Source of the DNA: a virus
Taxonomy: Duplodnaviria; Heunggongvirae; Uroviricota; Caudoviricetes
Reading direction: 5' to 3' (one strand)
Virus record (IMG/VR): IMGVR_UViG_3300028832_002797
Length of the DNA: 64,000 bases
Shown: in pieces, positions 1,761 through 31,126 of the stretch
Layout: each line of letters opens with the position of its first letter
Numbering within the stretch: the first letter of the stretch is position 1
Program-made: the position numbers and the translations under genes
Notes under the pieces: generated by a model
Seen by the model: only the letters and a program-made list of their open reading frames with translations
Database searches by the model: none
Told to the model about the DNA's origin: nothing

Positions 1761-1772
1761 CAATATAGCAAA
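1761..1772 (-). promoter_or_regulatory. Conserved phage promoter-like box (minus-strand CTATATTG) about 10 nt upstream of the ligA-C ATG
   Basis: Plus strand reads caatatagcaaa. Same motif family as more than 25 other intergenic sites. Confidence 0.45.
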
Positions 1773-1798
1773 TTTGGCAAGCTTTGTCAATGGTAAAT

Positions 1799-1993
1799 TT
1801 ACGGGTTATCTATCGGAACGAGCTTCCAGCCGTATTTTCCACATTTTTCTCTTGCGAATGTTGCGGCTTTTTCGTCATCGGTCCAGGTTTTCACGTTTTT
1901 ATCCATCATATACTGATATGTATCGGAATTCGTAGGAAATACCGGGCCATTAGGAAAATCAAACTGTACTGTCCAAATATTATTACATGTCAT
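1799..1993 (-). CDS. hypothetical small protein (64 aa)
   Basis: ORF track. Compact spacing in the operon. Confidence 0.4.
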   Translation of the reverse strand: MTCNNIWTVQFDFPNGPVFPTNSDTYQYMMDKNVKTWTDDEKAATFAREKCGKYGWKLVPIDNP

Positions 1994-2171
1994 CTTGAAT
2001 TACCTTTTCTGAAAATTCTTCGAGCTTATCTAGGCTCTTTTCTGCTGCGACGCGTTCTTCTGTAACGACGTCGGTATCAAATCTATCGAGATGAAGCATG
2101 GCCCTAGCCAATTCTGCGGCCGGGAACATTTCCATCATTGTTTTCGGTCTTTCTTTATTTTCTTCGTCCAT
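1983..2171 (-). CDS. hypothetical small acidic protein (62 aa, MDEENKERPK...)
   Basis: Internal ATG at 2169-2171 lies immediately downstream (6 nt) of a promoter box. The upstream part of the track ORF overlaps the uvsX 3' end and is probably not coding. Confidence 0.35.
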   Translation of the reverse strand: MDEENKERPKTMMEMFPAAELARAMLHLDRFDTDVVTEERVAAEKSLDKLEEFSEKVIQDDM

Positions 2172-2177
2172 AATAAT

Positions 2178-2191
2178 AAAATATAGTAAAA
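2178..2191 (-). promoter_or_regulatory. Promoter-like box (minus-strand TTTTACTATATTTT) directly upstream of the 1983..2171 start
   Basis: Plus strand reads aaaatatagtaaaa. The start codon follows 6 nt later, a leaderless-type arrangement. Confidence 0.4.
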
Positions 2192-2192
2192 T

Positions 2193-2222
2193 AAAAGGGC
2201 CCATTTGGACCCTTTTATTTAT
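2193..2222 (-). terminator. Rho-independent terminator hairpin (aagggcccatttggaccctt) with flanking A/T runs, downstream of uvsX
   Basis: GC-rich inverted repeat followed by T-runs on both strands, so potentially bidirectional. Confidence 0.55.
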
Positions 2223-2238
2223 TTGTTCTGGAAAACAA

Positions 2239-3432
2239 CTACATATCGTCGTCGTCTTCAGCGAGAATATCACCGTCGAGTTCGTCGAGGTTAGCACCAG
2301 TACGGTTAACCATAGCGATACCTGTATTTTCACTGAGGTCTTCGTAACCCGCATTCATAAGAGCGAGAACGTCTTCGTTTGCGTTGATAAGTACCTGTTC
2401 TTCGAATGCGAACTTGGATTCTACATAATGCCTGAACGTTTCATCCTTATAGAGAGGAATCCAGAATTTAGCACAGTAGAGTTCTTCTTCCTTCCACATT
2501 CTTTCCGGCTTGCCAAGTTCACCAGTTTCAGGATCAACCTTGGTATCGTAACCGATACGTGCATAATAACCCGGCTTCGGCTTGTAAACTACGCCACATT
2601 CCATGGCTTCATCCAAAAGTCCGTAGTACGGAGATACACCACCTGCATGAAGGATAAGATACTTGGTCTTGACGAATTCCTTAGCGGAACGACCCTTAGC
2701 AACAGCACAGGTAACGACCTTACCAAGAACATTCTTGCCCTTGTCACGTTCCTTTTTAGAGGAGTAACCGAGAACAATACCGTCAGCGTTAAAGATAATA
2801 CGCATACCGCCAGGAATCTTATACGGGTCGCCGAACATTTCGAGAGAAGCATAAACGTGGTTCATGACGAGAGTCGTGAAACCGCCACTCAAAATAATGT
2901 TTGCGAGTTCGTTTTTGAATTTTGCGGAAGACATGTTAACAGCGGAACTTCCCTGTTGTGCCTTTTCAAGAACCTGGTCTTCGATAATCGGACCCCAGGA
3001 GTCAAACAATACGAAAGTATTGCGACGTTGCTGAAGCGAGCCACACTGAGCCGAGAGCTTAGCGATGAACTGCTTAATTTTCGGAATGCTGTTCGTAGGA
3101 CCGTGAACACCGACTTCATCCATGTTAATTCCGAGCTTCGTAAGAAGGTCATAGTTAACGGAGTTTTCAGTATCGACAATGAAACAGTCCATACCAGAAT
3201 CCTGTGCAGCCTTAAGAACTGAATAACCAATCATGGACTTACCCCAGCCGGAACCGGCAGCAATCATGCTGATTGAACCCTTCTTAATACCACCCTTAAT
3301 TTTACCAGAAAGAACGAGGTTAACCGAAATACAGTTCGTACTAAGCCATTCCACAGGAATACGCTCAGTATGAAGAAGATCGGCCAAATCCTTATCTTTC
3401 TTCATTTTCGCCAAAAGCGTGTTTTTTGCCAT
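2239..3432 (-). CDS. uvsX: UvsX/RecA-family recombinase
   Basis: Walker A motif GSGWGKS. RecA-fold core with an acidic C-terminal tail (EDDDDM). Size (397 aa) is like T4 UvsX (391 aa). Confidence 0.85.
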   Translation of the reverse strand: MAKNTLLAKMKKDKDLADLLHTERIPVEWLSTNCISVNLVLSGKIKGGIKKGSISMIAAGSGWGKSMIGYSVLKAAQDSGMDCFIVDTENSVNYDLLTKLGINMDEVGVHGPTNSIPKIKQFIAKLSAQCGSLQQRRNTFVLFDSWGPIIEDQVLEKAQQGSSAVNMSSAKFKNELANIILSGGFTTLVMNHVYASLEMFGDPYKIPGGMRIIFNADGIVLGYSSKKERDKGKNVLGKVVTCAVAKGRSAKEFVKTKYLILHAGGVSPYYGLLDEAMECGVVYKPKPGYYARIGYDTKVDPETGELGKPERMWKEEELYCAKFWIPLYKDETFRHYVESKFAFEEQVLINANEDVLALMNAGYEDLSENTGIAMVNRTGANLDELDGDILAEDDDDM

Positions 3433-3542
3433 TTTTTACCTATTATTTTATTTTGTCATCGAATTTGTCATCATGAGCTTTAATCGGCTAACGTACTTTG
3501 AATCGCCCTTTTCATTGCACTTTTACTGTTAGCCAGAATATT

Positions 3543-3552
3543 TATAATATAG
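3543..3552 (-). promoter_or_regulatory. Promoter-like box (minus-strand CTATATTATA) following a terminator hairpin
   Basis: Plus strand reads tataatatag, adjacent to hairpin 3560-3577. Confidence 0.4.
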
Positions 3553-3559
3553 AAAAAAT

Positions 3560-4642: not shown

Positions 4643-5719
4643 CTAACTGAAAAACTCGAACATTGTCGGTCGTTCCAAATTAATTTCTTCCTTCGGACCT
4701 AACCAACCAGCGATTCTGAACATCGTATCGAAAAGCTGACAGAAAGATTTTCTGAATGCGGTTTCATAGTCAATCTCAAAGTATTTATTAAATTCTTGCG
4801 GCCAAGATTCGAGATATGCGACTGCTTCAATCGGCGAAGTTTTTCCGTCCATATCCTTGGCTACAATCTTCTGAGATGGCTTTACATATACATATCGTAA
4901 TTTGGAATTATTACGAATCGGGTTATATTTCAACCTGTCCTTAGTAACGATATAGTTGTAGATAATCGAAATCTTTGCACCGAAAATGAGACCAGTCGGA
5001 AGAATCAAACCGTGGTCCATGTAATAGTCCATGAGAGTCTCGTATTTCATATCGAACGGCGTCGTATTCATCGCACTTTCAGAATACAGCTCTCTGAATT
5101 TGTCCATGGCGATTGTCGTATATTTCGTATAGTTCTTGATACCGATAACCGACGAAATAACGTTCAAATCCGAGCTCTTAAACTGGTCATAAACCTTGTA
5201 GATATATTCCTGTGCTTCGTCCTTACCGATACCGTCGCAGATTTTGAATGCGAGTTCTTCAGCAGCCGTTTTACAGAAGTCTGGCATAGTCGATTTCTTA
5301 ATAGGAACGCCCATAATTTTATGCTTCATGTGGTCAAGCGGATATAACGAACCTTCACTATCGATAATATTACCGATATACAACTTCTTTGCAAAACAGA
5401 ACATGTTTTTGAAGATGTTTTCACGGTTGAAATTAATCTTATTGACCGTATGGAACTGCTTGGCTCGAATGTCGAGAATCTTATCGAAGAAACGCTGGAA
5501 CACGTCCTCGCATTTCTGGAAATAGCTTCGATATTCCTCTTCGTTCGTAATCTGCAAACCAGATTCCATCAAACGCTTCTTTAGCTCAATAATCGAAAAA
5601 TAAACTGAGTCCGTATCATTATGGACCGCACAGACATCGCGACCTTTCACGACAAGAGGACTCATGTCGTTCATTTGAAATTTATCAATCTTTACATCTA
5701 ATGCTTTCTTAAATTCCAT
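4643..5719 (-). CDS. Family B DNA polymerase, C-terminal subunit (motif C region, HNDTDSVYF)
   Basis: YGDTDS-like motif C (VHNDTDSVY). ATG at 5717-5719 lies 1 nt after the TAA (5721-5723) of the upstream pol fragment. The track ORF extends upstream in a non-coding overlap. Confidence 0.75.
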   Translation of the reverse strand: MEFKKALDVKIDKFQMNDMSPLVVKGRDVCAVHNDTDSVYFSIIELKKRLMESGLQITNEEEYRSYFQKCEDVFQRFFDKILDIRAKQFHTVNKINFNRENIFKNMFCFAKKLYIGNIIDSEGSLYPLDHMKHKIMGVPIKKSTMPDFCKTAAEELAFKICDGIGKDEAQEYIYKVYDQFKSSDLNVISSVIGIKNYTKYTTIAMDKFRELYSESAMNTTPFDMKYETLMDYYMDHGLILPTGLIFGAKISIIYNYIVTKDRLKYNPIRNNSKLRYVYVKPSQKIVAKDMDGKTSPIEAVAYLESWPQEFNKYFEIDYETAFRKSFCQLFDTMFRIAGWLGPKEEINLERPTMFEFFS

Positions 5720-5720
5720 C

Positions 5721-7928
5721 TTAATCCTCAATACCGAGAAGGTCAGTGTCCTTGTTGAATTCGTAAGCGTAGATTTCCATTTCGTCATTACCGCGAAGAA
5801 CAGTAATCTTTTCATAGAAATCGTACTTATATGTCTTTTCTTCCGTAATGATGGAAACTGTCGAGAATTCCTTGACAACATCCTTGAGCAAGAACGGAGA
5901 AACATAGTATTCATTGAGATTCTTGGTCAACCAGTCTCTCAAAGTGACACGAGCGCAACGGCAAATAGCACGAGCAACGTCAGGGTCATACAAAGCGAAA
6001 CTGTTAGCAAGAGAAACACCGTAAACCGAGTTAATGATGAGCTTCTTGGTCATCTGTCGGTTATGATACAAATGTTCACCAGCTTTATCGCCTTTCTTGT
6101 GACATTCCTTTTCCTTATTCTTATATACCTTACGTTCTGCAAACACCTGCTTGACAACGTTCGGAAGAATACCGTCATCACGGTTATAGAAACCAAGTTC
6201 TGCAACGTCTGTCGGAATAACCTCACCGGATTCAATCTGTTCCTTAGTCGGATGAACAACCTTCAATTCCGGAGAGATATGGAATTCCATAATGTGGTGC
6301 GGATATGACGAGGTAATATCGAAAGACATACAATCGTCATGTCGACCAGGGAAGTCATAACAATAACCTGCCTTTACCTGGAATTCTGGGAACGGATGAG
6401 GATCCTTCTTATACGCTTCCCATGCGGCAAGGAAATCCTTTTCAGTTTTCCAATGCTCGAATCTTCTCTGTCCGACAAGTCGCTTGATTGTATCGTAATC
6501 ATACTTTCCTTCAGACTGAGCTTCCTTATAAGCATCATAGAAAACACGGAACTTACAATAGTCCTTATAACGCTTTGCACCCGGTTCCCATTCAGTGTTC
6601 TGGAAATAATCGTTTCCGTCCTTATCTTTTACGATATAGCAACGTTCATTTCTCCACCAGTCAACATGATGGTCTTCACGGTCATTCAAAACACGGTTGG
6701 TCTTATGTAAGAATTTTAAGATATAACCAGTAGTCGTCGGAACCTTCTGTTCAACCTTATCGAGAGTAACAAGGCAATCGAATGCATATTCAATAATAAG
6801 GTCGAAGAGCTTGTTTTTCTTTTCAAGGTCGACCATAATCATAACGTCCTTTCTGTTATACTTCAGGAAGTTATTACCGTCAATCTTGTAGGTTTCAGAA
6901 ATTGCACCGCTATATTCCAACTTTTGGTCATTTAATTCGAGGTTGGCAACATAGTTAAGGGAATACGAAGAAAGAGGCGGATGAGATCCGAAGACTTCGT
7001 ACAGTTTCATGTAGTCAAGAGAATACAAACCAGGAATCGTGTACTTCGTTCCAAGTTCAACGTTTTCCATCTTGCGGTCAGTAATCTTTTCAGCCACAGG
7101 CATCATGCCGAGAGGAGACAGATTCTTTTCCCATTCAACCTTGATGTCGTATTTCTCTCTGAGAACTTCACAACGACGCATGATATAGGGAATATCGTAT
7201 GCGAGCGAGTTCCAACCTGTAATGATGTCAAAATGATTATTGGCGAACCACTTAATCCATTCACGGATAAGTACCATTTCTGACTTACAGTACGTATAAT
7301 TCGGTAAATCCTTCGGGTCATCTGTATATCTGATTGTGCTCCAGGTATAAGATTGACCAGTCTTTGTAGAATAACAAGTAATGGCGTTAATTGGCCACTG
7401 AGCTATTTCAGGAGACGGGAAGTCATATGAAACAAAACAGCTATCATCGTAGGGAAGCCATTTCTGAACTTCAATGTCATAAACAAAATACTTGTCATGG
7501 TCAAACTTCATATCGAAATCAATAAGACTGATGTCGAGAGTTTTCTTGGTTTTCTTTTCGCAGACCTTAATCAATGTTTCGTCATAATACTTACTTCCTG
7601 ACGCAACTTCAATATCGAAGAAACAGATATTCCATTTGCTCATATCAACTTGGAGTTCTTCGTTATCGTATAGTTGGTGCATGTATTTGACTTCTGGACG
7701 CAAATTACCTTCACATACGCCTCTAAGACCCATAAGGGAATTACGGTCACTATAATCGAACCGTATCATCGGTGTCTTGTGAATGTCAGTAATATTGCTC
7801 TTCTTTGAAGGATCCGGCCTGTAGCACCAGTTATGAAATTCAACTTCTTTAAAATCAATATCATCTTGGGCTTTAAAATAGAGCTTTTGTTTTTTAAAGT
7901 CCCAGTAACAATTCTTAAATCCACTCAT
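5721..7928 (-). CDS. Family B DNA polymerase, N-terminal subunit (3'-5' exonuclease + palm motifs A and B)
   Basis: Exo I (FFDIEV) and Exo II (WNSLAYDIPYI) motifs. Motif A DITSSYPHHI and motif B KLIINSVYGV. Ends before motif C. Confidence 0.85.
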   Translation of the reverse strand: MSGFKNCYWDFKKQKLYFKAQDDIDFKEVEFHNWCYRPDPSKKSNITDIHKTPMIRFDYSDRNSLMGLRGVCEGNLRPEVKYMHQLYDNEELQVDMSKWNICFFDIEVASGSKYYDETLIKVCEKKTKKTLDISLIDFDMKFDHDKYFVYDIEVQKWLPYDDSCFVSYDFPSPEIAQWPINAITCYSTKTGQSYTWSTIRYTDDPKDLPNYTYCKSEMVLIREWIKWFANNHFDIITGWNSLAYDIPYIMRRCEVLREKYDIKVEWEKNLSPLGMMPVAEKITDRKMENVELGTKYTIPGLYSLDYMKLYEVFGSHPPLSSYSLNYVANLELNDQKLEYSGAISETYKIDGNNFLKYNRKDVMIMVDLEKKNKLFDLIIEYAFDCLVTLDKVEQKVPTTTGYILKFLHKTNRVLNDREDHHVDWWRNERCYIVKDKDGNDYFQNTEWEPGAKRYKDYCKFRVFYDAYKEAQSEGKYDYDTIKRLVGQRRFEHWKTEKDFLAAWEAYKKDPHPFPEFQVKAGYCYDFPGRHDDCMSFDITSSYPHHIMEFHISPELKVVHPTKEQIESGEVIPTDVAELGFYNRDDGILPNVVKQVFAERKVYKNKEKECHKKGDKAGEHLYHNRQMTKKLIINSVYGVSLANSFALYDPDVARAICRCARVTLRDWLTKNLNEYYVSPFLLKDVVKEFSTVSIITEEKTYKYDFYEKITVLRGNDEMEIYAYEFNKDTDLLGIED

Positions 7929-7934: not shown

Positions 7935-7948
7935 AAATATAGAAAAAA
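7935..7948 (-). promoter_or_regulatory. Promoter-like box (minus-strand TTTTTTCTATATTTG) 6-7 nt upstream of the polB ATG
   Basis: Plus strand reads aaatatagaaaaaa. ATG at 7926-7928, a leaderless-type spacing. Confidence 0.45.
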
Positions 7949-8216: not shown

Positions 8217-8447
8217 TTATCGTTTAGTTAACCATATGTTATAGGTTCTTGTGTCTTCTTTTTGTGTCTTCGCATTGTCAGGAATCATAGATTGATATTC
8301 TTCCGGAATTTCAGAAAAATCTGGAGCTTGCTCATACTGTTTCCACACATTGGTATTGGCAATAGCATTGGCTATTTCCGGCATACCTTCTGTAGCTTCT
8401 TCAATATCAAGCGGAAGTCTTCTCTTTCTGCTGTACTCTGGTATCAT
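8217..8447 (-). CDS. hypothetical acidic protein (76 aa)
   Basis: ORF track. Overlaps the infA-like 3' end by about 40 nt. Confidence 0.3.
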   Translation of the reverse strand: MIPEYSRKRRLPLDIEEATEGMPEIANAIANTNVWKQYEQAPDFSEIPEEYQSMIPDNAKTQKEDTRTYNIWLTKR

Positions 8448-8697
8448 ATCTAAATTTTATCCTTCCTTTACTCATATCATAGATGTTAACACCGATGAGG
8501 CATTTATCACCTGGAGTGATATGAATATGCTTAACACGAATTTTACCAGATATTGTGCAGAGCACTCTCTGGCCGTTTTCGAGTTCTACGTCAAACATCG
8601 CATTAGGGCGGGCTTCTAAAACCGTGCCGATAACATCGACTTCTGACAAGTTTTGTTTTTCTGCTTTATCTTTTTTATTAGTTTTAATTTTTTTCAT
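8407..8697 (-). CDS. infA: Translation initiation factor IF-1 homolog (S1-like OB fold) with lysine-rich N-terminal extension
   Basis: VIGTVLEARPNAMFDVELENGQRVLCTISGKIRVKHIHITPGDKCLIGVNIYDMSKGRIKFRY aligns closely with bacterial IF-1 (GTV.E.LPN.MF.VELENGH...ISGKMR...I..GD.V....PYDL.KGRI..R). ATG at 8695-8697 lies 1 nt after the upstream TAA. Confidence 0.8.
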   Translation of the reverse strand: MKKIKTNKKDKAEKQNLSEVDVIGTVLEARPNAMFDVELENGQRVLCTISGKIRVKHIHITPGDKCLIGVNIYDMSKGRIKFRYDTRVQQKEKTSA

Positions 8698-8698
8698 G

Positions 8699-9718
8699 TT
8701 AATTCGCAGCTGTTTCAAGCTCAGCATTAGTGGTCGGGTTTTCTTCAGCAGATGGCATTTCAAAAGTTGATTCTCCGTCAGCAACGACTTCGAATTCTTC
8801 TACAGGTTCATTAGATTCTTCAATTTTTTGCTGTGCTTCTTTCTTTTCTTCAGATAGCTTTTTAATTCTTTCACTATTGGCCTGCACCAAAGCAAGGCGT
8901 TTAGCACCTTCGTCAACCTGGACGGAGGATTGCTTTGTAAGCGTGCTTCCCAATTCACTCAGATCTGCGGTTTCGAGCATTGCATCGAGGTTAGCTTTCT
9001 TTTGTTTCAAGATTTCTTCTTCAGATTTCGCAGGTTCTGCTTTTTTAACAACTCTGGGCTTCGTTACTTGTGGTGCTGCAGCAGCTTCAGCAACTTTTTC
9101 AGTTTTTGCTACTACGGGCTTTTTCTTAACAACAGTCTTCTTTACAGGAGCCGGAGGAGCTACAACTACTTCCGGTTCTTTTTCTTTGTAAATAATCTTC
9201 GGAGCTGGCGGAGGGGGATTCATGATTTCATCACACATGTCCAACATACATTCATTGAGTTTCTCAAGGCCAGTCATTCCATATTTAAAAAACATTGCAG
9301 TCATTTTCTCTTTCATTTCGTCAATAAGAGAAAAAGCTTCAGAAAAAGCGGGGTTATTAATATAACCCGCACTTTCTACAATACTTTGTGGCTTTTTAGT
9401 GCGTCTGCGAACAGGCGCAGGTTCTACATAATTATCATCGTCAAAATCGGGTTCAGCAGGCATAGGAGCAGGACGCGGCGCCGGAGTAGGAGCCGGAGCT
9501 GGTGCCGGACGTGGAGCTGGCCTCGGTGAAGGACGCTGCGTACGGTGAGCTTCGTTAATCTCCGGAACTTCGTCATTATAAAAATCATCATCCTCTAGCT
9601 CATCGACAGAAACTGTCTGAGCTGTAGACTTGTAATTCTTATATGCCTCGAGTTGCTGTTCTTCGGTATAAGACGGGTCGTTTTTATGTAGAAAGCTTAA
9701 AAAATCACCTTTACTCAT
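8699..9718 (-). CDS. proline/alanine-rich protein (RPSPRPAPRPAPAPAPTPAPRPAP; PPPPAPK...) with coiled-coil C-terminus
   Basis: ORF track with verified ATG. Low-complexity Pro-rich segments. Function unknown; scaffold or linker protein is possible. Confidence 0.5.
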   Translation of the reverse strand: MSKGDFLSFLHKNDPSYTEEQQLEAYKNYKSTAQTVSVDELEDDDFYNDEVPEINEAHRTQRPSPRPAPRPAPAPAPTPAPRPAPMPAEPDFDDDNYVEPAPVRRRTKKPQSIVESAGYINNPAFSEAFSLIDEMKEKMTAMFFKYGMTGLEKLNECMLDMCDEIMNPPPPAPKIIYKEKEPEVVVAPPAPVKKTVVKKKPVVAKTEKVAEAAAAPQVTKPRVVKKAEPAKSEEEILKQKKANLDAMLETADLSELGSTLTKQSSVQVDEGAKRLALVQANSERIKKLSEEKKEAQQKIEESNEPVEEFEVVADGESTFEMPSAEENPTTNAELETAAN

Positions 9719-9760: not shown

Positions 9761-9763
9761 TTT

Positions 9764-22706: not shown

Positions 22707-22709
22707 GAT

Positions 22710-23270: not shown

Positions 23271-23335
23271 GGTAGTTCCTTTTGTTTATGTGTATAATAT
23301 AGTAAATTTACTTATAAATGTCAACCCAAAAAATA

Positions 23336-23360
23336 AAAGGCCGACTTACGTCGACCTTTT
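23336..23360 (-). terminator. Hairpin aaggccgac-ttac-gtcgacctt with T-runs
   Basis: Downstream of the stop of 23392..25308. Confidence 0.5.
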
Positions 23361-23391
23361 ACCCCTCACACATCCGAATTATCCACACTCC

Positions 23392-25308
23392 TTACTTATC
23401 TGCTTCGGAGAACAGATTAATAAGCGTGTCCTTGCTCAACTGAGTCAAGTCAAGAGCAACTTCAGTCTCAGTATCGGAATCTTCGACAAATGTAAAGCCT
23501 GCTCTTTCGAGAATCGGCTTCAGGTCGACGAACGAACGACACTTGTTCTTGAGGTTCTCAATATACACGTCTGCATATTCTTGACTCGGGACACGTCCTC
23601 CTCCCTGGGTAAGGTCCATGAGATAGACTTTGTTGTCCACGATCAATGCACACTGCTTGTCGCGTTCGTTATCCACCGGAACGATGAATTCAGCGACAAC
23701 ATTGTTCGGGTCAACCTTTGCACTTACCCTGTATGCGTCCTTCTTCTTTTTCTCTTGACGAGCGACGAAGAACTTAAACTGGGACTTTGCGGAACCATTG
23801 TACTGACTTACGGAAATCTTTCCATCCGGGCACTTGCAGTCGATGTAGAACAATTCTGTTGCTTCAGGGTCTGCATTGGTCATGTCGCCAGAGAAAATAA
23901 TCTTATTTTCACGGTCAGTGAATGATGCGTTCCAGCCGTAGCTACTACCGTTAATATCGGCCATGTGAAGGTCGAAATCACGAGTACCCCATTCATTACG
24001 CCAATAGATACCGACGATATTGTGATCGTCAGCCATATTGACAGAGGTACCGAACGGATAGTTACCGATGAAGTTTTTTTCTGACGTTGGGACGGTCAGA
24101 TTGATATTCAACGGATAACGAACAGTACATGCCTTATCCTTGATGGAATTGACAATGGAATCTTCGAGCATTCCATAAAGTACCATCAGGTAGGAATTCA
24201 TGGACTGGCTTGTAGCCGGAGTGTCCTTGCGGATCCACATCTTGCCGTTACGAATCACGTACATCTTGCCACGAGCATTCTGGAGCTTGGCAAGAATACC
24301 TTGCATGAGAGTAATCTTCTTGAAGTTGGTGATTTCACCCTTTTCAAGACGAGCACGTACATCGTCCAGCTTCTTCTGTTCAGAAAGTACGGTTTCCCAG
24401 AAACCGGCAGTGAACGGCTTATGGTCAGTAACAGCCAAACGACGGATATGGTTAATAACCGATGAATTCGACTTCTTGCCAACAACAGCGGCCTTAAGCT
24501 TTGCTGCAGCCTTTCTGAAAGCTTCATTCTTGAAAACAGACGACTTACCAGCGTCCTTCTGGTTCTTGAATGCCAAGAACAGAGGCTTGAAGCGGTAGAA
24601 AATTGAAGCGAGTGCATGACACTGCTCTTCCGACAGCTTAGTAAAGTCGACGCTTTCAGCCTTTTCCTTAATCATGCGGATAGTCTTCTTGTCCTTGATG
24701 AGCATAGCTGCACCAGTAGCCTTGAAGACGAAGTATCGAAGCATGTTAAACGGATCCTTACCGTAGAAACCGGTTGCATCCATCAGGGCGATAGTTGCTT
24801 CCTTATTCTTGATGGTATCAATATCGAGACCATAGGTCTTGAAACGCTTCTGTTCGGTAATGAAGCCAACAAGTGCGTTAATGGTTTCGGTTTCAAGAGC
24901 GATACCAGCCTGGAGCATCTTAACACAACGGTTATAGATTTCCTCATCAGTTGCCGGCATAATCACCTTGAAAGAGTCGTACGGGATTTCAACGTCCGGA
25001 GCATTGTTCGGAACGTATGTTTCACCCGTATAATCAGTTCCGTAGGTCGAGGCGTAATGAAGAAGTTGATCTACCAACAGTTCAAAACGCGTCTTAGACG
25101 TGATGTCGGACCATTTGGCGTAGAAGGTCTTATTGTAATTTGTCTTCGCTTCAGCCTTGACCCAATCGAGTGCGAGCTTGGAGCAACAATCCGGGTGGAT
25201 AATCCAACCGTACTTTGCAGATTCAGCGTTAACATCTTCAAAAGAACGCTTTGAGTTACCTTCTGCCTTAGGCATGACATTGAACATTGTAATCAACTTA
25301 AGATTCAT
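23392..25308 (-). CDS. large hypothetical protein (638 aa)
   Basis: Long uninterrupted ORF with verified ATG. No motif recognised by eye. Confidence 0.5.
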   Translation of the reverse strand: MNLKLITMFNVMPKAEGNSKRSFEDVNAESAKYGWIIHPDCCSKLALDWVKAEAKTNYNKTFYAKWSDITSKTRFELLVDQLLHYASTYGTDYTGETYVPNNAPDVEIPYDSFKVIMPATDEEIYNRCVKMLQAGIALETETINALVGFITEQKRFKTYGLDIDTIKNKEATIALMDATGFYGKDPFNMLRYFVFKATGAAMLIKDKKTIRMIKEKAESVDFTKLSEEQCHALASIFYRFKPLFLAFKNQKDAGKSSVFKNEAFRKAAAKLKAAVVGKKSNSSVINHIRRLAVTDHKPFTAGFWETVLSEQKKLDDVRARLEKGEITNFKKITLMQGILAKLQNARGKMYVIRNGKMWIRKDTPATSQSMNSYLMVLYGMLEDSIVNSIKDKACTVRYPLNINLTVPTSEKNFIGNYPFGTSVNMADDHNIVGIYWRNEWGTRDFDLHMADINGSSYGWNASFTDRENKIIFSGDMTNADPEATELFYIDCKCPDGKISVSQYNGSAKSQFKFFVARQEKKKKDAYRVSAKVDPNNVVAEFIVPVDNERDKQCALIVDNKVYLMDLTQGGGRVPSQEYADVYIENLKNKCRSFVDLKPILERAGFTFVEDSDTETEVALDLTQLSKDTLINLFSEADK

Positions 25309-25612
25309 AGTATTTCCTCATTAAAAGTGTTAAAGCGAGAAGTAGTATTTATTTGCCTAAATTATTATAGGAACATCTTTTGCTTTAACGGGTTAAAATA
25401 TAGTAATTATTGTGGGTTTTGTAAACCCCTATTTTTTATTTTTTTTTTCCTTGGATGCTTTCTTCTTCAAGGAGTTTTCTGTTTCCAACGTACTTCCCAT
25501 AAAAACTTACCGCTCGGATCGTGTTAGAATAGTTTAGGGATTGAGTTCTGTTTGACGATAAACAACCCGAACGGTCTGTATAATATAGCAAGTGCTTTGT
25601 CTGTTGTAAACC

Positions 25613-26329
25613 CTAATTATAAATAAAATTTTTAATAGATTCAAAAACAATATCTTTATTATTAGTATAATCGTATTCCCAGATTATAAGAAGCTTTATA
25701 TTTTTAGATTCACATAATATTCGTTTTTCATTATCTCGATTCCATAATTCTTGTGCTATTTTACGAGGTTGTATTAAAAAATCATTCGCTTTATAAAAAC
25801 GTGGGTCTGCATGCCATACAGTACCATTATATTCAATGGCTTTATTTAAATTTGGTAAATATATATCTAATTCTTTATTCCCAATAACAAATCTTTCATT
25901 TTGTAAAATTTTATCATTATAAAATGTTTTTATAAATTCACAAATTTCATCTTCAGCTCTAGAACGCATTAATGTATTGTTTAATCTCATAGTATTAAAC
26001 CGTTTTTCTTGCACTTCTGGATTTTGCGATGAATTCTTATATCCCGTCTTTTCAAAATACGTCTTTATATAAGTATTATATCGTTGTTTATTTGCTATTG
26101 GATCTGCAGAACTACAGGAATAATTACAATGCTTTTTATATCCTCGACCAAATTTAATAAATTTAGTCTCTTTACCACAAGTTGGACATATACCTTCACC
26201 GGGTTTTCTTATAAATTTATCGTAATATTCTTTTGAAGTTAACCCATGCTTTTTAAAAGCATGAGATGTTAATCCTTGTGTATCAACACATTCTTTGCCA
26301 CATATCTGACAAATCATACTATACCTCAT
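25613..26329 (-). CDS. Zinc-finger protein fused to DUF559/Vsr-like PD-(D/E)xK endonuclease domain (candidate free-standing homing-type nuclease)
   Basis: N-terminal CxxC/C2H2-like motifs (CQICGK...HAFKKH; CPTCGK). C-terminal ELDIYLPNLNKAIEYNGTVWH matches the DUF559 core (D-[FI]Y-P...AIE-x-[DN]G..H). The gene is AT-rich. Confidence 0.55.
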   Translation of the reverse strand: MRYSMICQICGKECVDTQGLTSHAFKKHGLTSKEYYDKFIRKPGEGICPTCGKETKFIKFGRGYKKHCNYSCSSADPIANKQRYNTYIKTYFEKTGYKNSSQNPEVQEKRFNTMRLNNTLMRSRAEDEICEFIKTFYNDKILQNERFVIGNKELDIYLPNLNKAIEYNGTVWHADPRFYKANDFLIQPRKIAQELWNRDNEKRILCESKNIKLLIIWEYDYTNNKDIVFESIKNFIYN

Positions 26330-26377
26330 TTAATTTTAAAAGATTGCAGTCTTTTATACTATTTATAATAAAAAAAT

Positions 26378-26401
26378 GGGAATACTCTGCAAAGTATTCC
26401 C
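26378..26401 (-). terminator. Hairpin gggaatact-ctgcaa-agtattccc plus T-run downstream of the patatin gene
   Basis: 9-bp stem. Confidence 0.5.
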
Positions 26402-26425
26402 TAATGCTATGAGGTATAGCATGTT

Positions 26426-27298
26426 TTAAACGTTTTTAATAAAATCTAGTATATTTATACGAACAGTTTCATAATATTTATCCCAGATTCCCATTATTAA
26501 ATTAATATTTTCGTCACTTACATTATCCATTTTAAGTTTTTTCTTATATGTTGGACATGCATTAAATACGTTTTCAGCCCCAAGTATTGCTTCACATTCA
26601 TATTGTGGGCTTTTGCTAGAACGTGCAATCCAATCGCTGAGCATATATTCTGCCCATCCAAGTAAAGTTTGATTACCATGCTCAGTATTTGGAGTTTCCA
26701 TACCTGTACTAAAATTAAGAATTTTAATATCTTTATGTCCCTGTTTAAATTGACCTGCCAAAAGAATATCTGAACATTCATTAGCCCAGCAACCGCCATC
26801 CATATAAGATAAACCATCTTTTTCAATAACATCAAAATATGTTGGTGCTGCACAAGATGTTAAAACTGCAAATGCTTTATCAACATCTTTATCGCCTAAA
26901 TCCCATACTTTTTCAACAGATTTACCATTCATGCAAGTAGTTGGTATAAAAATAGGTTTTTTCCAATCTGAACATTTACCTTTCAAATTACTCTGTAATA
27001 ATTTTTTAAGATTAGAATTATCATATGTTGGGCAAGACGGTTTTAAACGCTTATACCATGAATACTTTGTAAAAATTTTCTTTAAGTTATTCTTATAAAG
27101 TTCAAATATATCATGTGCCGAATATCCTTCAGCTAAACAAGCAGCAATAATAGAACCTGTACTTGTTCCTGCAAAAGCAGAAGTTAAATCACAAAGTTTT
27201 TTACCAAGATCCTGTTCAAGACGACACATAAAAGCTAATGGGCCAATTCCAAGAGCACCACCGCCCGCAATACTAATACATAATTGTTTCTTTGCCAT
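26426..27298 (-). CDS. Patatin-like phospholipase
   Basis: Oxyanion GGGALG, nucleophile elbow GTSTGS (GxSxG) and catalytic MDGG (DGG) motifs in the canonical order. Confidence 0.75.
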   Translation of the reverse strand: MAKKQLCISIAGGGALGIGPLAFMCRLEQDLGKKLCDLTSAFAGTSTGSIIAACLAEGYSAHDIFELYKNNLKKIFTKYSWYKRLKPSCPTYDNSNLKKLLQSNLKGKCSDWKKPIFIPTTCMNGKSVEKVWDLGDKDVDKAFAVLTSCAAPTYFDVIEKDGLSYMDGGCWANECSDILLAGQFKQGHKDIKILNFSTGMETPNTEHGNQTLLGWAEYMLSDWIARSSKSPQYECEAILGAENVFNACPTYKKKLKMDNVSDENINLIMGIWDKYYETVRINILDFIKNV

Positions 27299-27340
27299 AT
27301 TTTCTCCTATACATTATTTATAAATAGGAGAAAACTTAGA

Positions 27341-27820
27341 TTATGCTAAATTTTTCAATATTGTGGTTTCAAGCTCAAAATCATTCATGGCCTTTTTATA
27401 TTCAAAACTATCTTCATGTCCAGAAAGTCTCGAATATGGAATTCCCATAGAATCCCAGATTCTATGCTGCATAACTATCCAGCCATTCTCAGCATAAAAA
27501 TCTTCCCATCTATTAAGAAATTCAATCAGATCATTTAGCTTAGATTTTGTCAGCCATTCCAACATTTTAAAGACATTATCTTTATGGTCAAAAATCATTA
27601 TTGCACATCTGTCTTTAATGGGCATAAGAGTACATGTGACCATAATTTCAAACTTTTCTTCATCTTCATACCAACTGAGTTCAACCTCAAAACGATTATC
27701 CTTATCACGAAGACAAATACTTTCATGGGTTTGAGAAGTATTTATACTCATGTAATAATTATCTGGTTTAATTCGAAGAATATAGTTTTGAAAATGTTGG
27801 AATGTATATGCGTCAGACAT
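27341..27820 (-). CDS. hypothetical protein (159 aa), AT-rich island
   Basis: ORF track. Confidence 0.4.
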   Translation of the reverse strand: MSDAYTFQHFQNYILRIKPDNYYMSINTSQTHESICLRDKDNRFEVELSWYEDEEKFEIMVTCTLMPIKDRCAIMIFDHKDNVFKMLEWLTKSKLNDLIEFLNRWEDFYAENGWIVMQHRIWDSMGIPYSRLSGHEDSFEYKKAMNDFELETTILKNLA

Positions 27821-28266
27821 TACTTCTTACCTAGAAGCTTATTAAAGGCATTTACGAGCTTACTGATTTCGTCTTCACCGTGTGTAGGTTCATAATCAAT
27901 ACTTGTATCATAAACAACACGACGTTGAACTGGTTCTTTCTTCATTTTTTCCTTATGTTCATTCATAAGTTTTTCAGCAAGTTCATATGACGGAATATAA
28001 AATCCAACATCCCATGAAGCATCTTTTGAACAAATATGAGGTTTAGATTCTTCTTTCCAAAGACAGCTATCACGGTATCTTAAGTATCGTTCCATATTAT
28101 AGGTCAAACGAAACCAAGTCTTCGAACCACTATTTATCTTACGGTATTCAACAACAAACCATGACGGATCTCGGTTTGCAATACTTGGAGAAACGTCAAA
28201 ATCGAACGTCGGATATTCAAATGTACCAAGTTCTATAATACGATATTCATAAAGTGATTTTTCCAT
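27820..28266 (-). CDS. hypothetical protein (148 aa)
   Basis: ORF track. Confidence 0.4.
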   Translation of the reverse strand: MEKSLYEYRIIELGTFEYPTFDFDVSPSIANRDPSWFVVEYRKINSGSKTWFRLTYNMERYLRYRDSCLWKEESKPHICSKDASWDVGFYIPSYELAEKLMNEHKEKMKKEPVQRRVVYDTSIDYEPTHGEDEISKLVNAFNKLLGKK

Positions 28267-29378
28267 TAGAATACATATCCTTCACGAGACTTACCAGTAG
28301 TAACATTACGAAGAATGGTTGGAATGATTTCACCAGCCTTCGTAATAATGACTTCATGACCAATTTCAATGCCCATATCTTCGAGCATATCGATATTGCA
28401 CATATTTGCACGCTGAACAGTAGTTCCACAGAGTTCCACAGGTTCAACGACAGCGACCGGAGTCAAATTACCATTCTTAATAGACCATTCAATATTGATG
28501 AGCTTGGTCTGAGCAAGAGAATACTTCGGCTTCAAAGCGATAGAGAATTCCGGGAGGTAATTCGTTTCAAGATCTTCATAATCGATAACAGAAGTCTTCC
28601 AAACAAGACCGTCAATCTGATAATCACGTTCTTCATGCCAAACCTGGTCCATAATGGCAACAGCCTTATCGCCAGTCATAGAGTCGAGGTCATAAATCTT
28701 GTATTCAACAACATCGAAACCCTGCTTGGTCATCCAGTCGAGCATATCGACCTGAGTATGAAATTTAGTGTTCTTCGGGCGAGCTTCATAAACCTTGATA
28801 TTGAGCTTGTCACAATCAGAACCATCGAGATGCTTCATAATACCAGAAGCGGCATTACGACAGTTCTTGTACTTCGGGAAGAACTGTTCCTTAACGGACT
28901 TGTAGAGCAAAATTTCACCACGGATAGTTCCGGTAAATTCCTTATCCTTAAGCTTCTTGACAGCACCTTTCATTTTGAGGATATTATCGGTAATGTCATC
29001 ACCGTATTCACCGTCACCGCGAGTAATGCCCTGAACGAGCTTACCGTCAACGTATTCAAGAGCAATAGAACAACCGTCAAGCTTCAAAGGAGCGACGACA
29101 AATTCATGACCGGCCATACGACACTTATTGAACCAGACGTTCATTTCTGGAGCAGTATTGGCCTTATTCTGAGAGCCCATGATAATGTTGTGCTTTACCT
29201 TTTCAAATCCTTCGGTATGATCCTTACCGACTTCCTTCAAAACGTCAGAATCAGGATAATTGGTTTTGAGTTCGTCCCAGAGAGCATCGAATTCGATGTC
29301 GCTCATGATCGGGGTGTCGGAGTTGTAGTAGGCGTCTTGTGCCTGGCGGATTTTAGCTTCAAGTTCGTTCTTATTCAT
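28266..29378 (-). CDS. ligA: NAD-dependent DNA ligase, N-terminal fragment (domain Ia + adenylation NTase + OB fold)
   Basis: Collinear with LigA residues about 1-400. KxDG motif PLKLDGCSIALEY, ITRGDGEYGDDIT, CRNAASG, DGLVWK and VIITKAGEIIP. Ends at the OB-fold boundary. ATG placed at 29376-29378, 6 nt after a promoter box. Confidence 0.85.
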   Translation of the reverse strand: MNKNELEAKIRQAQDAYYNSDTPIMSDIEFDALWDELKTNYPDSDVLKEVGKDHTEGFEKVKHNIIMGSQNKANTAPEMNVWFNKCRMAGHEFVVAPLKLDGCSIALEYVDGKLVQGITRGDGEYGDDITDNILKMKGAVKKLKDKEFTGTIRGEILLYKSVKEQFFPKYKNCRNAASGIMKHLDGSDCDKLNIKVYEARPKNTKFHTQVDMLDWMTKQGFDVVEYKIYDLDSMTGDKAVAIMDQVWHEERDYQIDGLVWKTSVIDYEDLETNYLPEFSIALKPKYSLAQTKLINIEWSIKNGNLTPVAVVEPVELCGTTVQRANMCNIDMLEDMGIEIGHEVIITKAGEIIPTILRNVTTGKSREGYVF

Positions 29379-29384
29379 GTTATA

Positions 29385-29397
29385 CAATATAGTAAAA
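29385..29397 (-). promoter_or_regulatory. Promoter-like box (minus-strand TTTTACTATATTG) 6 nt upstream of the ligA-N ATG
   Basis: Plus strand reads caatatagtaaaa. Followed upstream by hairpin gggccttgtcaaccc. Confidence 0.45.
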
Positions 29398-29654
29398 AAT
29401 ATGGGCCTTGTCAACCCATTTTTTCTAAAGCATTGAGAATACAAAAATCATGCTTAAATGCAAGATTTTCTTTTTCAACGTCCATATCGTATTTCTTGTC
29501 ACCCATTTGGATAATCTTATAAGAAGAATTTGCAATATGAGTATCGCTTTCTCGCGTCCACGAATACGTATAGCCACCAATCAGTTCTTGTTTAAGGGTT
29601 CTCCGTATAAGTCCATGAATATAACAATCACAGTCGTCTTTAACACCATCTTTG

Positions 29655-30053
29655 TCAATTATTGTTACTAGAATCATTCAGATTACACTCCATTTCGTAA
29701 ATATCTGTCTGGTTCAGAATATATAACTGAGCTTTCTTGAAATCCGTACCGTATTTCAGAAACATGTCATAAAGTACATCGGTAGTGACATCCATTCCTG
29801 GATGTTTATCATAAAACTCAATAATACTATAATTCGGTTTCATGCCGGTTTCGAGAATATACGACATTCCATAAACCCACAAGTCTTCGACACGCATTCC
29901 GTTTCGAATAATACTCTGTGCCCATTCATTACAACGTTTTTTATCTACATTACCAGTCCGGGCTTTCTCTTCGTAAAAACAATAACGCATTACGTCTGTT
30001 GCATAATCAGCCCAGTCGTCAACGTCTTTAAAATACTCTGAAAATGTCGACAT
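29655..30053 (-). CDS. hypothetical protein (132 aa)
   Basis: ORF track. Confidence 0.4.
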   Translation of the reverse strand: MSTFSEYFKDVDDWADYATDVMRYCFYEEKARTGNVDKKRCNEWAQSIIRNGMRVEDLWVYGMSYILETGMKPNYSIIEFYDKHPGMDVTTDVLYDMFLKYGTDFKKAQLYILNQTDIYEMECNLNDSSNNN

Positions 30054-30382
30054 TATAAAGACTCCAATGCTAATAAAGAATAAAAATAATTAGTAAATGA
30101 GGCACGTTGTTCTTTATCGTCTAATTTAAACTTCATTTTGTTTATTTCAACTGTACATGGAAATCTAACATGTACTGAATTAGACTGTTTTTTTGGCTTA
30201 GGTTTCTGTCCCCAAATTTTTTCGCCCTTACGCTTAGACGGAGGAGCTGGTGTATAACAGAAATTTTCTACGATATACAAATCCATCGCGATAGGTTCTC
30301 TACTATGCCAAAAATTATAGCCATAGTGAATACCCGTAACACTATATGTCGAACCGTTAACTTTAACTTTTACTATTGCCAT
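30053..30382 (-). CDS. hypothetical protein (start moved to ATG 30380-30382; the upstream part of the track ORF is the regulatory cassette)
   Basis: The cassette (promoter box + hairpin) would otherwise be translated. Confidence 0.4.
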   Translation of the reverse strand: MAIVKVKVNGSTYSVTGIHYGYNFWHSREPIAMDLYIVENFCYTPAPPSKRKGEKIWGQKPKPKKQSNSVHVRFPCTVEINKMKFKLDDKEQRASFTNYFYSLLALESL

Positions 30383-30386
30383 ACGT

Positions 30387-30421
30387 ATAATATAGAAAAA
30401 GGGTCGACTTATGTCAACCCT
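30387..30421 (-). repeat. 35-nt terminator-promoter cassette, copy 1 (ataatatagaaaaagggtcgacttatgtcaaccct)
   Basis: Identical 35-mer recurs at 31092..31126. Confidence 0.7.
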
Positions 30422-30638
30422 CATAATTCGGGTACATTCTGCAAGTGTCCCAAATATTTGCTTGTTCTTCATCTGACAAATAAATCATCTGGTCTTCTGA
30501 AACCGGCTTTCCTTCCAGTCGATTCATGAATGAATTACGCATTTTTAAAATAGCATCTTGTCGTTCATCAATGCCGTTGATACACATGTCGAATTTTTCA
30601 GCCAGCTGTTGTGCTTTGGATTTCATTTTTGTTCTCCA

Positions 30639-31067
30639 TTAATAAATTTCTCTTGTATAAAATTCTTTAGTAGCCTCTTGCATAGCAACAGCTTTCCAAT
30701 CCGATACGGTTCTGGTATTTATCCATTTATCCATATCATCAATCATGCATTGGGCTTTAGTCTTAAAACCAACAGACTTCAACAATTCACGTTGATGCCA
30801 TTCTTCAAGTCTACGCTTTTCATTATTTTGCTTTGCTTTGTATGCCAAAACTGCTGCTTCACCCAGGACTTTTAGTCTTTTTTGCTTTTCTGCAACAGTT
30901 TCCGTATTTGACAAAAGTTCATCAAATTCTTCAATCAGCTTTCCAAGCTTGTAATCTACATTATTTTGATAATCTTTATGGAAATTGCAATTTAACAAAC
31001 CCTGCATGTACAGAATAACTGCACCTGTAAGAAAGACACAAATTGCGGTAATGATGATTGTTGCCAT
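30639..31067 (-). CDS. membrane-anchored coiled-coil protein (142 aa)
   Basis: N-terminal TM helix. SD aaggag upstream. Confidence 0.45.
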   Translation of the reverse strand: MATIIITAICVFLTGAVILYMQGLLNCNFHKDYQNNVDYKLGKLIEEFDELLSNTETVAEKQKRLKVLGEAAVLAYKAKQNNEKRRLEEWHQRELLKSVGFKTKAQCMIDDMDKWINTRTVSDWKAVAMQEATKEFYTREIY

Positions 31068-31091
31068 TATAAACTCCTTTTGTTTATGTTC

Positions 31092-31126
31092 ATAATATAG
31101 AAAAAGGGTCGACTTATGTCAACCCT
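31092..31126 (-). repeat. 35-nt terminator-promoter cassette, copy 2 (identical to 30387..30421)
   Basis: Exact repeat. Hairpin gggtcgac-ttat-gtcaaccc lies downstream of the flotillin stop. Confidence 0.7.

Follow-up and report, generated by a model that had tools for sequence, protein, structure and literature searches.

Probable bipartite sigma-70-type promoters, often fused to terminator-like hairpins, and predicted leaderless mRNAs in a huge phage of herbivore guts

A stretch of 64,000 nucleotides (nt) from IMG/VR record IMGVR_UViG_3300028832_002797 (hereafter the window) belongs to a large phage, as yet uncultured, that is found in the guts of ruminants and other herbivores and has T4-like replication genes; between the genes, the window carries many copies of an AT-rich box built around the hexamer TATATT. 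Our analysis suggests that these boxes belong to early-type promoters of the bipartite sigma-70 type, which are often fused to a terminator-like hairpin in the manner of the promoter-early stem-loop (PeSL) cassettes of T4-type phages and ten of which lie directly at an ATG, where they would give leaderless mRNAs; we assign to this reading a probability of about 0.68. With ~28 early-type and at least 12 late-type promoters in 64 kb, a usable transcription map becomes available for very large gut phages of a lineage not yet in culture.

A probable bipartite promoter behind the box

The 28 boxes analysed were aligned on the hexamer. Twenty-six of them had been named in a first-pass annotation of the same sequence, and all 26 are present within a few nt of where they had been placed; two more (41525-41530 and 42659-42664) were added here. 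The annotation had assigned the feature to positions 1761-31126, where boxes do occur, but they are not confined to that region and span the entire window. It had also allowed that the motif might be no more frequent than expected for an AT-rich composition. We find TTTTWCTATATT ten times, always on the minus (gene) strand, versus 0.13 expected from dinucleotide shuffles, none of which reached ten. Since the GC content of the window is 33-41% except for one stretch at 28%, and the DNA is thus not extremely AT-rich, base composition does not explain the excess. The CTATATT core occurs 28 times on the minus strand, which bears ~90% of the open reading frames (ORFs), and 7 times on the plus strand of the whole window. 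A repeat finder to which no motif was supplied returned the cassette surrounding the box as the main dispersed repeat (families D2, D3, D8, D10, D11, D13, D14 and D16), and the 35-nt repeat that had been reported is indeed exact (30387-30421 is identical to 31092-31126). That the box is a promoter element, oriented in the same direction as the genes, is supported by these findings.

Alignment on the hexamer reveals a second conserved block, GGG-TT(G/T)ACA, located exactly 17 nt 5' of TATATT. The string TTKACA-N17-TATATT has 14 exact matches, versus 0.07 expected, and when one further mismatch is allowed a -35 element is present in 17 of the 28 boxes (class A), including the sole plus-strand promoter, which serves the CCA-adding enzyme. 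These 17 elements read TTGACA (8), TTTACA (6), TTGACG (1), TTTACG (1) and CTTACA (1), the spacer measures 17 nt in every one of them, and the -10 hexamer TATATT matches TATAAT at five of six positions. Consistently, a consensus scan of positions 14001-34000, conducted independently of the box motif, placed boxes at its four best sites (11/12 matches), and several terminator-like calls from that scan overlap boxes. Judged by its sequence, the box comprises the -10 hexamer of a sigma-70/sigma-A-type promoter, G-TT(G/T)ACA-N17-(C)TATATT, and the T-rich 3' portion of the promoter spacer. Two earlier proposals have to be revised in this light: (i) the 'hairpin loops' TTTGTAAA and TTATGTCAACC are actually TTTACAAA and GGTTGACATAA read on the opposite strand and thus represent the -35 element (TTTACA / TTGACA), and (ii) a sigma factor or RNA polymerase specificity peculiar to the phage is unsupported for the 17 bipartite boxes, because a canonical -35 element at 17 nt indicates a sigma-70/sigma-A-type promoter, which in itself requires no polymerase of the phage's own. 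We infer that the class A promoters would be recognised by a sigma-70-family holoenzyme.

Spacing between promoter and start codon

The short distances from hexamer to ATG described in the first-pass annotation proved correct (polB, 7 nt; the N-terminal part of the ligase, 7 nt; cca, 7 nt; the gene starting at 30382, 6 nt; the gene starting at 2171, 8 nt), and further ones exist at 19933 (6 nt), 42053 (7 nt), 57047 (6 nt), 37672 (9 nt) and 41515 (9 nt), so that ten hexamers lie 6, 6, 6, 7, 7, 7, 7, 8, 9 and 9 nt from the start. The distribution of distances is bimodal, being either 6-9 nt or at least 19 nt; the sole intermediate value, 14 nt at 60534, is found at a gene with its own ATAAATA-N4-ATG. 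The other promoters have leaders with a Shine-Dalgarno (SD) sequence of the AAGGA/GGAG type, as also stated before, and are located 19-32 nt from the ATG, with two exceptions at 88 and 113 nt. In the window as a whole, TATATT-N6-9-ATG occurs 15 times versus 5.6 expected. All ten short-spaced starts are ATG, all ten have a pyrimidine at -1, and none is preceded by an SD sequence. For the longer-spaced promoters, the seventh nt after the hexamer is an A in 12 of 17 cases, which is the position held by the A of the ATG when the spacing is 6 nt. Transcription would start at the seventh or eighth nt after the hexamer, and for 10 of the 28 promoters the predicted start is then the A of the ATG, yielding a leaderless mRNA to which the ribosome would bind directly at the 5' AUG; transcripts from the remaining promoters would have leaders of 12-25 nt with an SD sequence. 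It is thus from spacing that we infer both start sites and leaderless translation.

Six of the promoters with leaderless-type spacing belong to class A. The plus-strand promoter of cca (15670-15698; TTTACA-N17-TATATT with a TG extended -10) is located 7 nt from ATG 15706. On the minus strand, the metallophosphoesterase promoter (19940-19968) is embedded in a 15-bp hairpin 6 nt from ATG 19933, with the start given by ORF callers lying 27 nt upstream; the promoter of the N-terminal part of the ligase (29386-29414; hairpin ATGGG/CCCAT) lies 7 nt from ATG 29378; that at 30389-30417 (hairpin GAGGGTTGAC/GTCGACCCTT) 6 nt from ATG 30382; that at 42061-42089, which has no hairpin and reads TTTACA at -35 in relatives, 7 nt from ATG 42053; and that at 57054-57082 (TTGACG-N17-TATATT, in a hairpin) 6 nt from the in-frame ATG 57047. 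The other four, likewise on the minus strand, are boxes without a -35 element (class B; see below): TTTTACTATATT at 2180-2191, 8 nt from ATG 2171 and following a hairpin GGGTCC/GGGCCC; TTTTTCTATATT at 7936-7947, 7 nt from ATG 7928 of PolB and following a 15-bp hairpin; 37682-37693, 9 nt from ATG 37672 with the same spacing in relatives; and TTTTTACCTATATT at 41525-41536, 9 nt from ATG 41515 of the 5'-3' exonuclease/RNase H, with 7 nt in relatives.

Protein comparisons support the view that the short-spaced ATGs represent the true N-termini of PolB, the N-terminal part of the ligase, the 5'-3' exonuclease, the phosphoesterase and the cca product. Homology of PolB with that of a distant relative (L011, introduced below) extends from residue 3, though the L011 box is located 42 nt upstream and accompanied by an SD sequence; the profile match of the ligase sets in one residue past the start defined by the ATG; the Pfam match of the 5'-3' exonuclease begins at residue 4 and the Metallophos match of the shortened phosphoesterase at residue 10; and the first 16 codons of cca differ only synonymously from those of the close relative. 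Start codons are corrected for the ligase N-terminal part, the phosphoesterase and the 57047 gene, for which ORF callers extend upstream. In the relative with a 411-kb contig, 10 of 25 promoters are at 6-9 nt, none is at 10-15 nt, and there is one uncertain TTG candidate at 16 nt; several of its 6-9-nt promoters are found at orthologous genes, where the sequence of the spacer is altered and its length kept, and some are found at other genes. Early-type cases of leaderless spacing number 0 in 22 kb of L011. Provided that the leaderless starts predicted here are genuine, the phage would depend for essential replication enzymes on SD-independent initiation at a 5' AUG.

Several of the genes concerned are noteworthy in themselves. 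The NAD-dependent DNA ligase is split into two minus-strand genes 26 kb apart (28266-29378 and 923-1738), which correspond to profile positions 7-386 (N-terminal part) and 384-653 (C-terminal part, with BRCT) and each have their own promoter cassette. The family-B DNA polymerase is likewise split, into adjacent minus-strand genes of 735 (5721-7928) and 358 (4643-5719) amino acids, and is a single ORF of 1086 amino acids in L011. A homologue of translation initiation factor IF1 is encoded at 8407-8727 (minus strand; PF01176, E = 1.5e-19) and is possibly relevant to leaderless translation. The Jug phages encode IF1A as a core gene as well as RNase H, and their DNA polymerase genes are often split (PMC12880540).

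Hairpins and composite cassettes

A GC hairpin had been described as usually preceding the box. Hairpins are indeed enriched, with the 45 nt upstream folding at or below -10 kcal/mol for 14 of 28 boxes versus 9.7% of random 45-nt windows (P = 7e-8), and 'usually' overstates their frequency. The -35 element is positioned either in the 5' arm of the hairpin (GGGTTGAC/GTCAACCC) or in its loop (GACGGG-TTTACAAAT-CCCGTC), the promoter spacer coincides with the T-run 3' of the stem, and the features of an intrinsic terminator, a GC-rich stem-loop and a T-run 3' of a gene, are present. With the -35 element located in the hairpin and the U-tract serving as spacer, a single element of ~45 nt could both end the upstream transcript and begin the next one. 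At about half of the sites such a promoter-terminator element would terminate the preceding transcript and start the following one, the hairpins being putative terminators by their sequence, and this PeSL-type design would make each gene a self-contained transcription unit open to gain, loss or swap.

The class A promoters apart from those listed above are all on the minus strand and further illustrate the design. The promoter 5' of the C-terminal part of the ligase (1762-1790; TTGACA-N17-TATATT) lies 23 nt from ATG 1738, with SD sequence GGAGA. At 15034-15062 (TTTACA-N17-TATATT), the -35 element is within the loop of hairpin GGACGGG/CCCGTC, and at 21656-21684 (CTTACA-N17-TATATT) hairpin AAGGGC/GCCCTT is combined with a distance of 23 nt to the ATG and SD sequence AAGGAA. 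The promoter at 23296-23324 (TTGACA-N17-TATATT) has the 25-nt leader cassette ATACACATAAACAAAAGGAA, that at 25397-25425 (TTTACA-N17-TATATT) precedes a gene for 638 amino acids whose ATG is 88 nt away, and that at 31094-31122, part of the second copy of the 35-nt repeat, has a 26-nt leader with AAAGGAG. Hairpin GGGTTGAC/GTCAACTC contains the promoter at 34677-34705 (TTGACA-N17-TATATT; 25 nt to ATG 34651). Three more are associated with an island specific to the window: 51780-51808 (hairpin AACCATTTAC/GTAAATGGTT; 19 nt to the ATG; SD sequence AAAGGAA) and 52958-52986 (TTTACG-N17-TATATT, with TG; 27 nt to the ATG) lie within it, and 54631-54659 (hairpin of the ATAGGTTGAC type, with TG; 25 nt to the ATG of a helicase) marks its left edge. 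Finally, the promoter at 25582-25610, which has a TG extended -10, is followed by ~150 nt (25430-25581, minus strand) that contain just a 21-codon ORF (MGSTLETE...); in the relative, a deletion brings this ORF to 8 nt after the -10 hexamer.

Boxes without a -35 element

A -35 element is not recognisable in 11 of the 28 boxes, which have their hexamers at 2185, 3551 (uvsX), 7941 (polB), 9756, 14380, 15626, 17823, 37687, 41530, 42664 and 60534. A strong hairpin plus T-run precedes three of these class B boxes, and six of them read TATATT-TG. Searching positions -30 to -35 for a MotA box or a shifted -35 element revealed no common element, and the TGAAACG -35 of phage CBB is likewise absent from that position. 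Further upstream, ~55 nt 5' of the predicted start, five to eight class B boxes have AAAA.T(C/T)GGAAC, a motif limited to boxes without a -35 element: it is found ~43-45 nt 5' of hexamers 3551, 7941, 9756, 17823, 41530 and 42664, with variants at 2185 and 37687. It lies partly within the 3' ends of upstream ORFs, its GGAAC is changed to GGAAT in the 86%-identical relative, and it is absent in L011. Class B boxes may be weaker promoters, promoters assisted by an UP element, or promoters dependent on a phage factor like the T4 middle promoters, and they mark a likely second regulatory class awaiting a factor.

Class B boxes at a longer distance from their genes, again on the minus strand, are TTTTTCTATATT at 3546-3557 (113 nt 5' of uvsX, after hairpin GGTAAAC/GTTTACC and overlapping TATAAATA), 9751-9762 (overlapping the end of the ClpP gene and followed by TATAAATA and an SD sequence before ATG 9718), 14375-14386 (32 nt to the ATG; SD sequence AGGAG), 15621-15632 (5' of a thymidylate-kinase-like gene; 19 nt to the ATG; SD sequence AGGTGA), TTTTACTATATT at 17818-17829 (directly after the stop codon of the RNA ligase, with an uncertain downstream gene) and 42659-42670 (TG extended -10; 19 nt to the ATG; SD sequence TAAGGA). 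The CTATATT box at 60529-60540 is followed by ATAAATA-N4-ATG (60512-60525).

Late-type promoters

The motif (T)ATAAATA is the late consensus of T4 (PMC1524935). In the window, TATAAATA occurs 15 times versus 6.5 expected, with 12 of the 15 on the gene strand, and ATAAATA-N4-ATG occurs six times versus 0.54 expected, every one at a gene start; all six starts are ATG and have a pyrimidine at -1. The motifs suggest that promoters resembling the late ones of T4 form a second class, in which both arrangements of the early class recur, either adjacent to the ATG or with a leader. When TATAAA is read as a hexamer, N4 corresponds to the 6 nt seen in early-type promoters. Minus-strand examples are ATAAATA-N4-ATG at 20141-20154 and at 44210-44223 (start of an SprT-like gene), and TATAAATA-N4-ATG at 59173-59187 and 62791-62805, each at a gene start. 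Just past the right end of the window (contig L021), the tail-tube gene and neighbouring genes have TATAAATA in front of them, and one divergent TATAAATA-N4-ATG pair (L021; 3486-3507) and one divergent TTTACA-N17-TATATT-N7-ATG pair are also found there.

The gene at 45749-46103 (minus strand) has two in-frame candidate leaderless starts: TATATT-N7-ATG (46088-46103), the start of gene 45749-46090, and, ten codons on, TATAAATA-N4-ATG (46058-46072).

Relatives, conservation and mosaicism

The same phage is present in several ENA, Logan and JGI metagenome assemblies. IMG/VR relatives have ~86% nucleotide identity, one of them on a 411-kb contig (IMGVR_UViG_3300023371_000061), and L011 is more distant at 68% PolB identity. 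A megablast of 25 kb against GenBank phages returned no match; PolB is only ~30% identical to gp43 of cyanomyoviruses, as it is to that of any cultured T4-like phage. Among orthologues at ~80-86% nucleotide identity, TATATT is invariant, the -35 element is either kept or switched between TTGACA and TTTACA, and spacer and flanks vary, with compensatory changes in the stems (G-C to A-T at 29391 in the ligase promoter; C-G to T-A at 7941 in the polB hairpin). An invariant hexamer along with compensated stems is what one would expect if the promoter hexamers are functional and the RNA or DNA structure is under selection.

Comparison with the 411-kb relative also bears on the cassettes as exchangeable units. 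At 30388, homology at 90% runs through the entire cassette and ends right after the -10 hexamer, beyond which the relative has a different gene, with an SD leader resembling that of the other copy of the cassette in the window. A low-GC island of 3.75 kb with three promoter-plus-gene cassettes (50953-54698, minus strand; 28-33% GC) is absent from the relative, in which the downstream gene has CTTACA-N17-TATATT-N6-ATG at the site instead. It encodes a ResIII/DEAD helicase, an Eco57I-methylase-like protein and an ORF of 267 amino acids; no relatives of the helicase (52998-54605) were found in IMG/VR, which makes sense given that its gene lies within this window-specific island. Compared with the same relative, gene 34732-35103 is an insertion, flanked by a stop codon on one side and by the next cassette on the other, and the other junctions fall at stop or start codons. 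These observations support the notion that genes are self-contained exchangeable units, and prove little about mechanism since any gene-sized insertion or deletion must fall in intergenic DNA. A gene for an HNH homing endonuclease is located at 25613-26329 (minus strand); the relative has only a short fragment matching it, on the far side of the neighbouring gene for 290 amino acids.

Host and alternative explanations

The canonical -35/-10 architecture, the frequent strong SD sequences and the lack of enrichment of Bacteroidetes-type promoters argue for a host with an E. coli-like sigma-A and SD-using ribosomes. The -33/-7 promoter of Bacteroidetes (TTTG-N19-21-TAnnTTTG) was rejected as a candidate, being found twice versus 2.5 expected (TAnnTTTG alone 64 times versus 68.5); TATATT-TG fits TAnnTTTG in seven boxes, with no TTTG at the right distance.

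Several points weigh against the sigma-70 reading and the leaderless starts derived from it. The protein encoded by a major facilitator superfamily (MFS) transporter gene (47433-48605, minus strand) is 75-78% identical to genes in metagenome-assembled genomes labelled Paludibacteraceae, which points to Bacteroidales and is at odds with the promoter and SD signals; the matching contigs have 50% GC and come from ruminant guts, and no other gene aligns. The sigma-A of Bacteroidales does not use TTGACA/TATAAT. Host recognition does not account for the fifth position of the hexamer, which is always T such that TATAAT never occurs, and among the 11 boxes without a -35 element just one has a TG extended -10, so that a sigma-70 holoenzyme alone might read them poorly. 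The T4 rule (TATAAATA at -13 to -6; PMC1524935) would put +1 one nt past the A at the N4 spacing of the late type. In addition, the Jug gut phages of Bacteroides/Phocaeicola (360-402 kb), which have ruminant relatives, encode RpoC (PMC12880540). Should the host belong to the Bacteroidales, its sigma-A would be unable to read the promoters, and the idea of a phage-specific factor would be right; the promoter type may itself help to narrow the host.

We consider it unlikely, though worth keeping in view, that the boxes are read by a phage-specific sigma factor or RNA polymerase, for which the T4 middle promoters and the second class of promoters in the jumbo phages CBB/GAP32 would be analogues. 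The class B boxes preceding polB, uvsX and the 5'-3' exonuclease, with their tendency to TATATT-TG and, in several cases, AAAA.TYGGAAC, would fit such a factor, as would the MFS gene, the Jug RpoC and the invariance of TATATT where sigma-70 would take TATAAT. A precedent is CBB, which encodes gp55-like and sigma-70-like factors and has three promoter classes, of which one is RpoD-like, another is a variant located 5' of genes for DNA synthesis, and the third is the late ATAAATA type (PMC5259590). Yet the textbook -35 element at exactly 17 nt in 17 boxes and the recurrence of the cassette in a Klebsiella phage and, similarly, in a Yersinia phage speak against it, the upstream GGAAC motif is lost in L011 and partly coding, and no sigma factor or RNA polymerase domain was detected among ~50 window proteins scanned. 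No homologue of MotA, AsiA, gp55 or gp33 was identified in the window, and the contig of the 411-kb relative was not among the matches listed for a degenerate DNA pattern representing the RNA polymerase motif NADFDGD in IMG/VR.

Virion polymerases of the AR9/phiKZ type were examined as a particular case of this idea. The promoter of the AR9 virion polymerase contains TATATTAT, a string in common with the window boxes, and starts ~6-7 nt downstream. The AR9/phiKZ promoters are, however, single extended AT-rich elements (AAATATATATTAT-N6-G) without a -35 element, and AR9 5' untranslated regions are 26-491 nt long (PMC5312081). The -35 element at 17 nt, the absence of the AAATATA part from the window boxes and the fact that no polymerase gene is seen in the window ruled out this reading. 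For the 11 boxes without a -35 element, a phage factor is possible.

The short-spaced genes might, on the other hand, be expressed from longer read-through or upstream transcripts, with SD-independent internal initiation on the AU-rich, unstructured box, e.g., via ribosomal protein S1. The sequence before the short-spaced ATGs is indeed U/A-rich and located just 3' of a hairpin, terminators may leak, and the polB box of L011, 42 nt upstream with SD sequence GAAAGGAG, indicates that short spacing is not essential for polB. Internal initiation gives no reason, however, for a strict window of 6-9 nt, a nearly empty gap at 10-18 nt and starts that are exclusively ATG, nor for the preservation of spacing despite changed spacer sequence and the recurrence of the same spacing logic with a different, late-type motif and again on the divergent promoter pairs outside the window, and we therefore regard it as improbable. 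Least credible of all, and to our minds almost negligible, is the view that the boxes have nothing to do with transcription and serve as repeats for recombination or homing. In its favour, no other dispersed repeat of the window is as prominent, a box coincides with one of the mosaic junctions with the relative, and homing endonuclease genes are present; but the orientation of the boxes follows the genes, the plus-strand case included, their position is fixed relative to start codons, and two conserved hexamers at canonical spacing enclose a sequence that varies. Early-type promoters of the sigma-70 type, ten of them with predicted leaderless transcripts, remain the reading that we favour.

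Other features of the window

An orphan RNA, cow-rumen-2 of Rfam, is located at 42933-43037 on the plus strand, opposite to most genes, with a strong match of 108 bits (gathering threshold 66), and is kept in the 411-kb relative (L016) and in a contig with 27% GC (L032). A tandem pair of Cpn10/GroES-like genes and a gene with weak resemblance to SpoVG are found on the minus strand (12566-13239 and 11258-11731), and a ClpP-like protease is encoded at 9764-10510. Gene 60610-61488 (minus strand) consists mostly of degenerate repeats of 12-30 nt (D1, D4, D5 and D7) and encodes an acidic, Glu/Gly-rich protein. A tRNA scan of the window found none, and an exact-protein look-up for 63259-63951 gave no match.

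Comparison with known promoter systems

When the 76-nt cassette was compared with GenBank phages, the top-ranked records included mainly jumbo phages of enterobacteria with genomes of 337-358 kb. The cultured jumbo Klebsiella phage RCIP0023 has a near-identical element, aaaGGGTTGACttcgGTCAgCCCttttGCTAT(A/T)AT, of the design aaaGGGTTGAC..GTCAxCCCttttGCTAT(A/T)AT, and Yersinia phage fHe-Yen9-03 has a similar cassette with a weaker -10 element. The design is thus known from phages whose hosts possess an E. coli-type sigma-70. More generally, phages of the Rak2/CBB type have the same composite element as the window (A-tract, GGGTTGAC, loop, GTCAxCCC, TTTT, G/T, C, TAT(A/T)AT) and share with the window phage a TATAAATA-like late class, a huge genome and T4-like core genes. 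The 49 kb of RCIP0023 examined, however, contain cassette-type promoters located 27-36 nt from the annotated ATG, with SD sequences, and none of leaderless type, which makes leaderless use appear particular to the lineage of the window phage.

T4 itself provides parallels for each class: its early -35 elements GTTTAC/GTTGAC with a -10 resemble class A, a class with a -10 element only precedes replication genes in both phages, and the late motif TATAAATA is common to both (PMC2988021, PMC1524935). Class B differs from the T4 middle promoters in lacking the MotA box (TGCTT at -30).

The resemblance to PeSL cassettes proposed in the first-pass annotation was borne out by sigma-70-like promoters with stem-loops overlapping the boxes; at least one junction with the relative falls exactly after a -10 hexamer. 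In PeSLs, a strong sigma-70-like promoter is combined with a GGG...CCC stem-loop, which either overlaps the -35 and -10 elements or is placed between them; they extend from a stop codon to the SD sequence and ATG of the next gene, and crossovers have been observed between -10 and ATG (PMC2839356, PMC4122927), as at 30388. Those of RB49/phi1, T4/PST and KVP40/nt-1 are, like the window cassettes, intergenic and present in many copies among small accessory genes. Differences are that (i) PeSLs end with an SD sequence and ATG, as do ~15 window cassettes, whereas at 10 of the 28 boxes only 6-9 nt separate the -10 hexamer from the ATG, without an SD sequence and with no room for a leader, (ii) the -10 hexamer of the window is invariably TATATT, (iii) 11 boxes are devoid of a -35 element, and (iv) the window provides no evidence for mini-circles. 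The cassette itself is of a known kind, and the PeSL design reaches well past cultured T4-type coliphages and vibriophages.

For leaderless genes of Deinococcus-Thermus, a -10 element 6-7 bp 5' of the ORF is an established signature (PMC12340547). Their TANNNT element, ~6-7 bp from the ORF and without an SD sequence, is arranged as in the window, and a -35 element added at the appropriate distance boosts transcription (PMC12340547). The habit is, however, chromosomal and belongs to one bacterial phylum, whereas in the window it belongs to a phage, where it occurs alongside genes with SD leaders and is linked to terminator-like hairpins. Early- and late-type -10 elements set directly at ATGs, including those of core replication enzymes, are a new variant. 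It is tempting to speculate, although we consider the full picture somewhat doubtful, that in this T4-related huge gut phage about one gene in six is expressed leaderless from early (TTKACA-N17-TATATT) and late (TATAAATA) promoters, among them those for DNA polymerase, ligase, 5'-3' exonuclease and CCA-adding enzyme, as part of a takeover strategy that the IF1 homologue possibly helps, with the PeSL-like cassettes serving as shuffling units.

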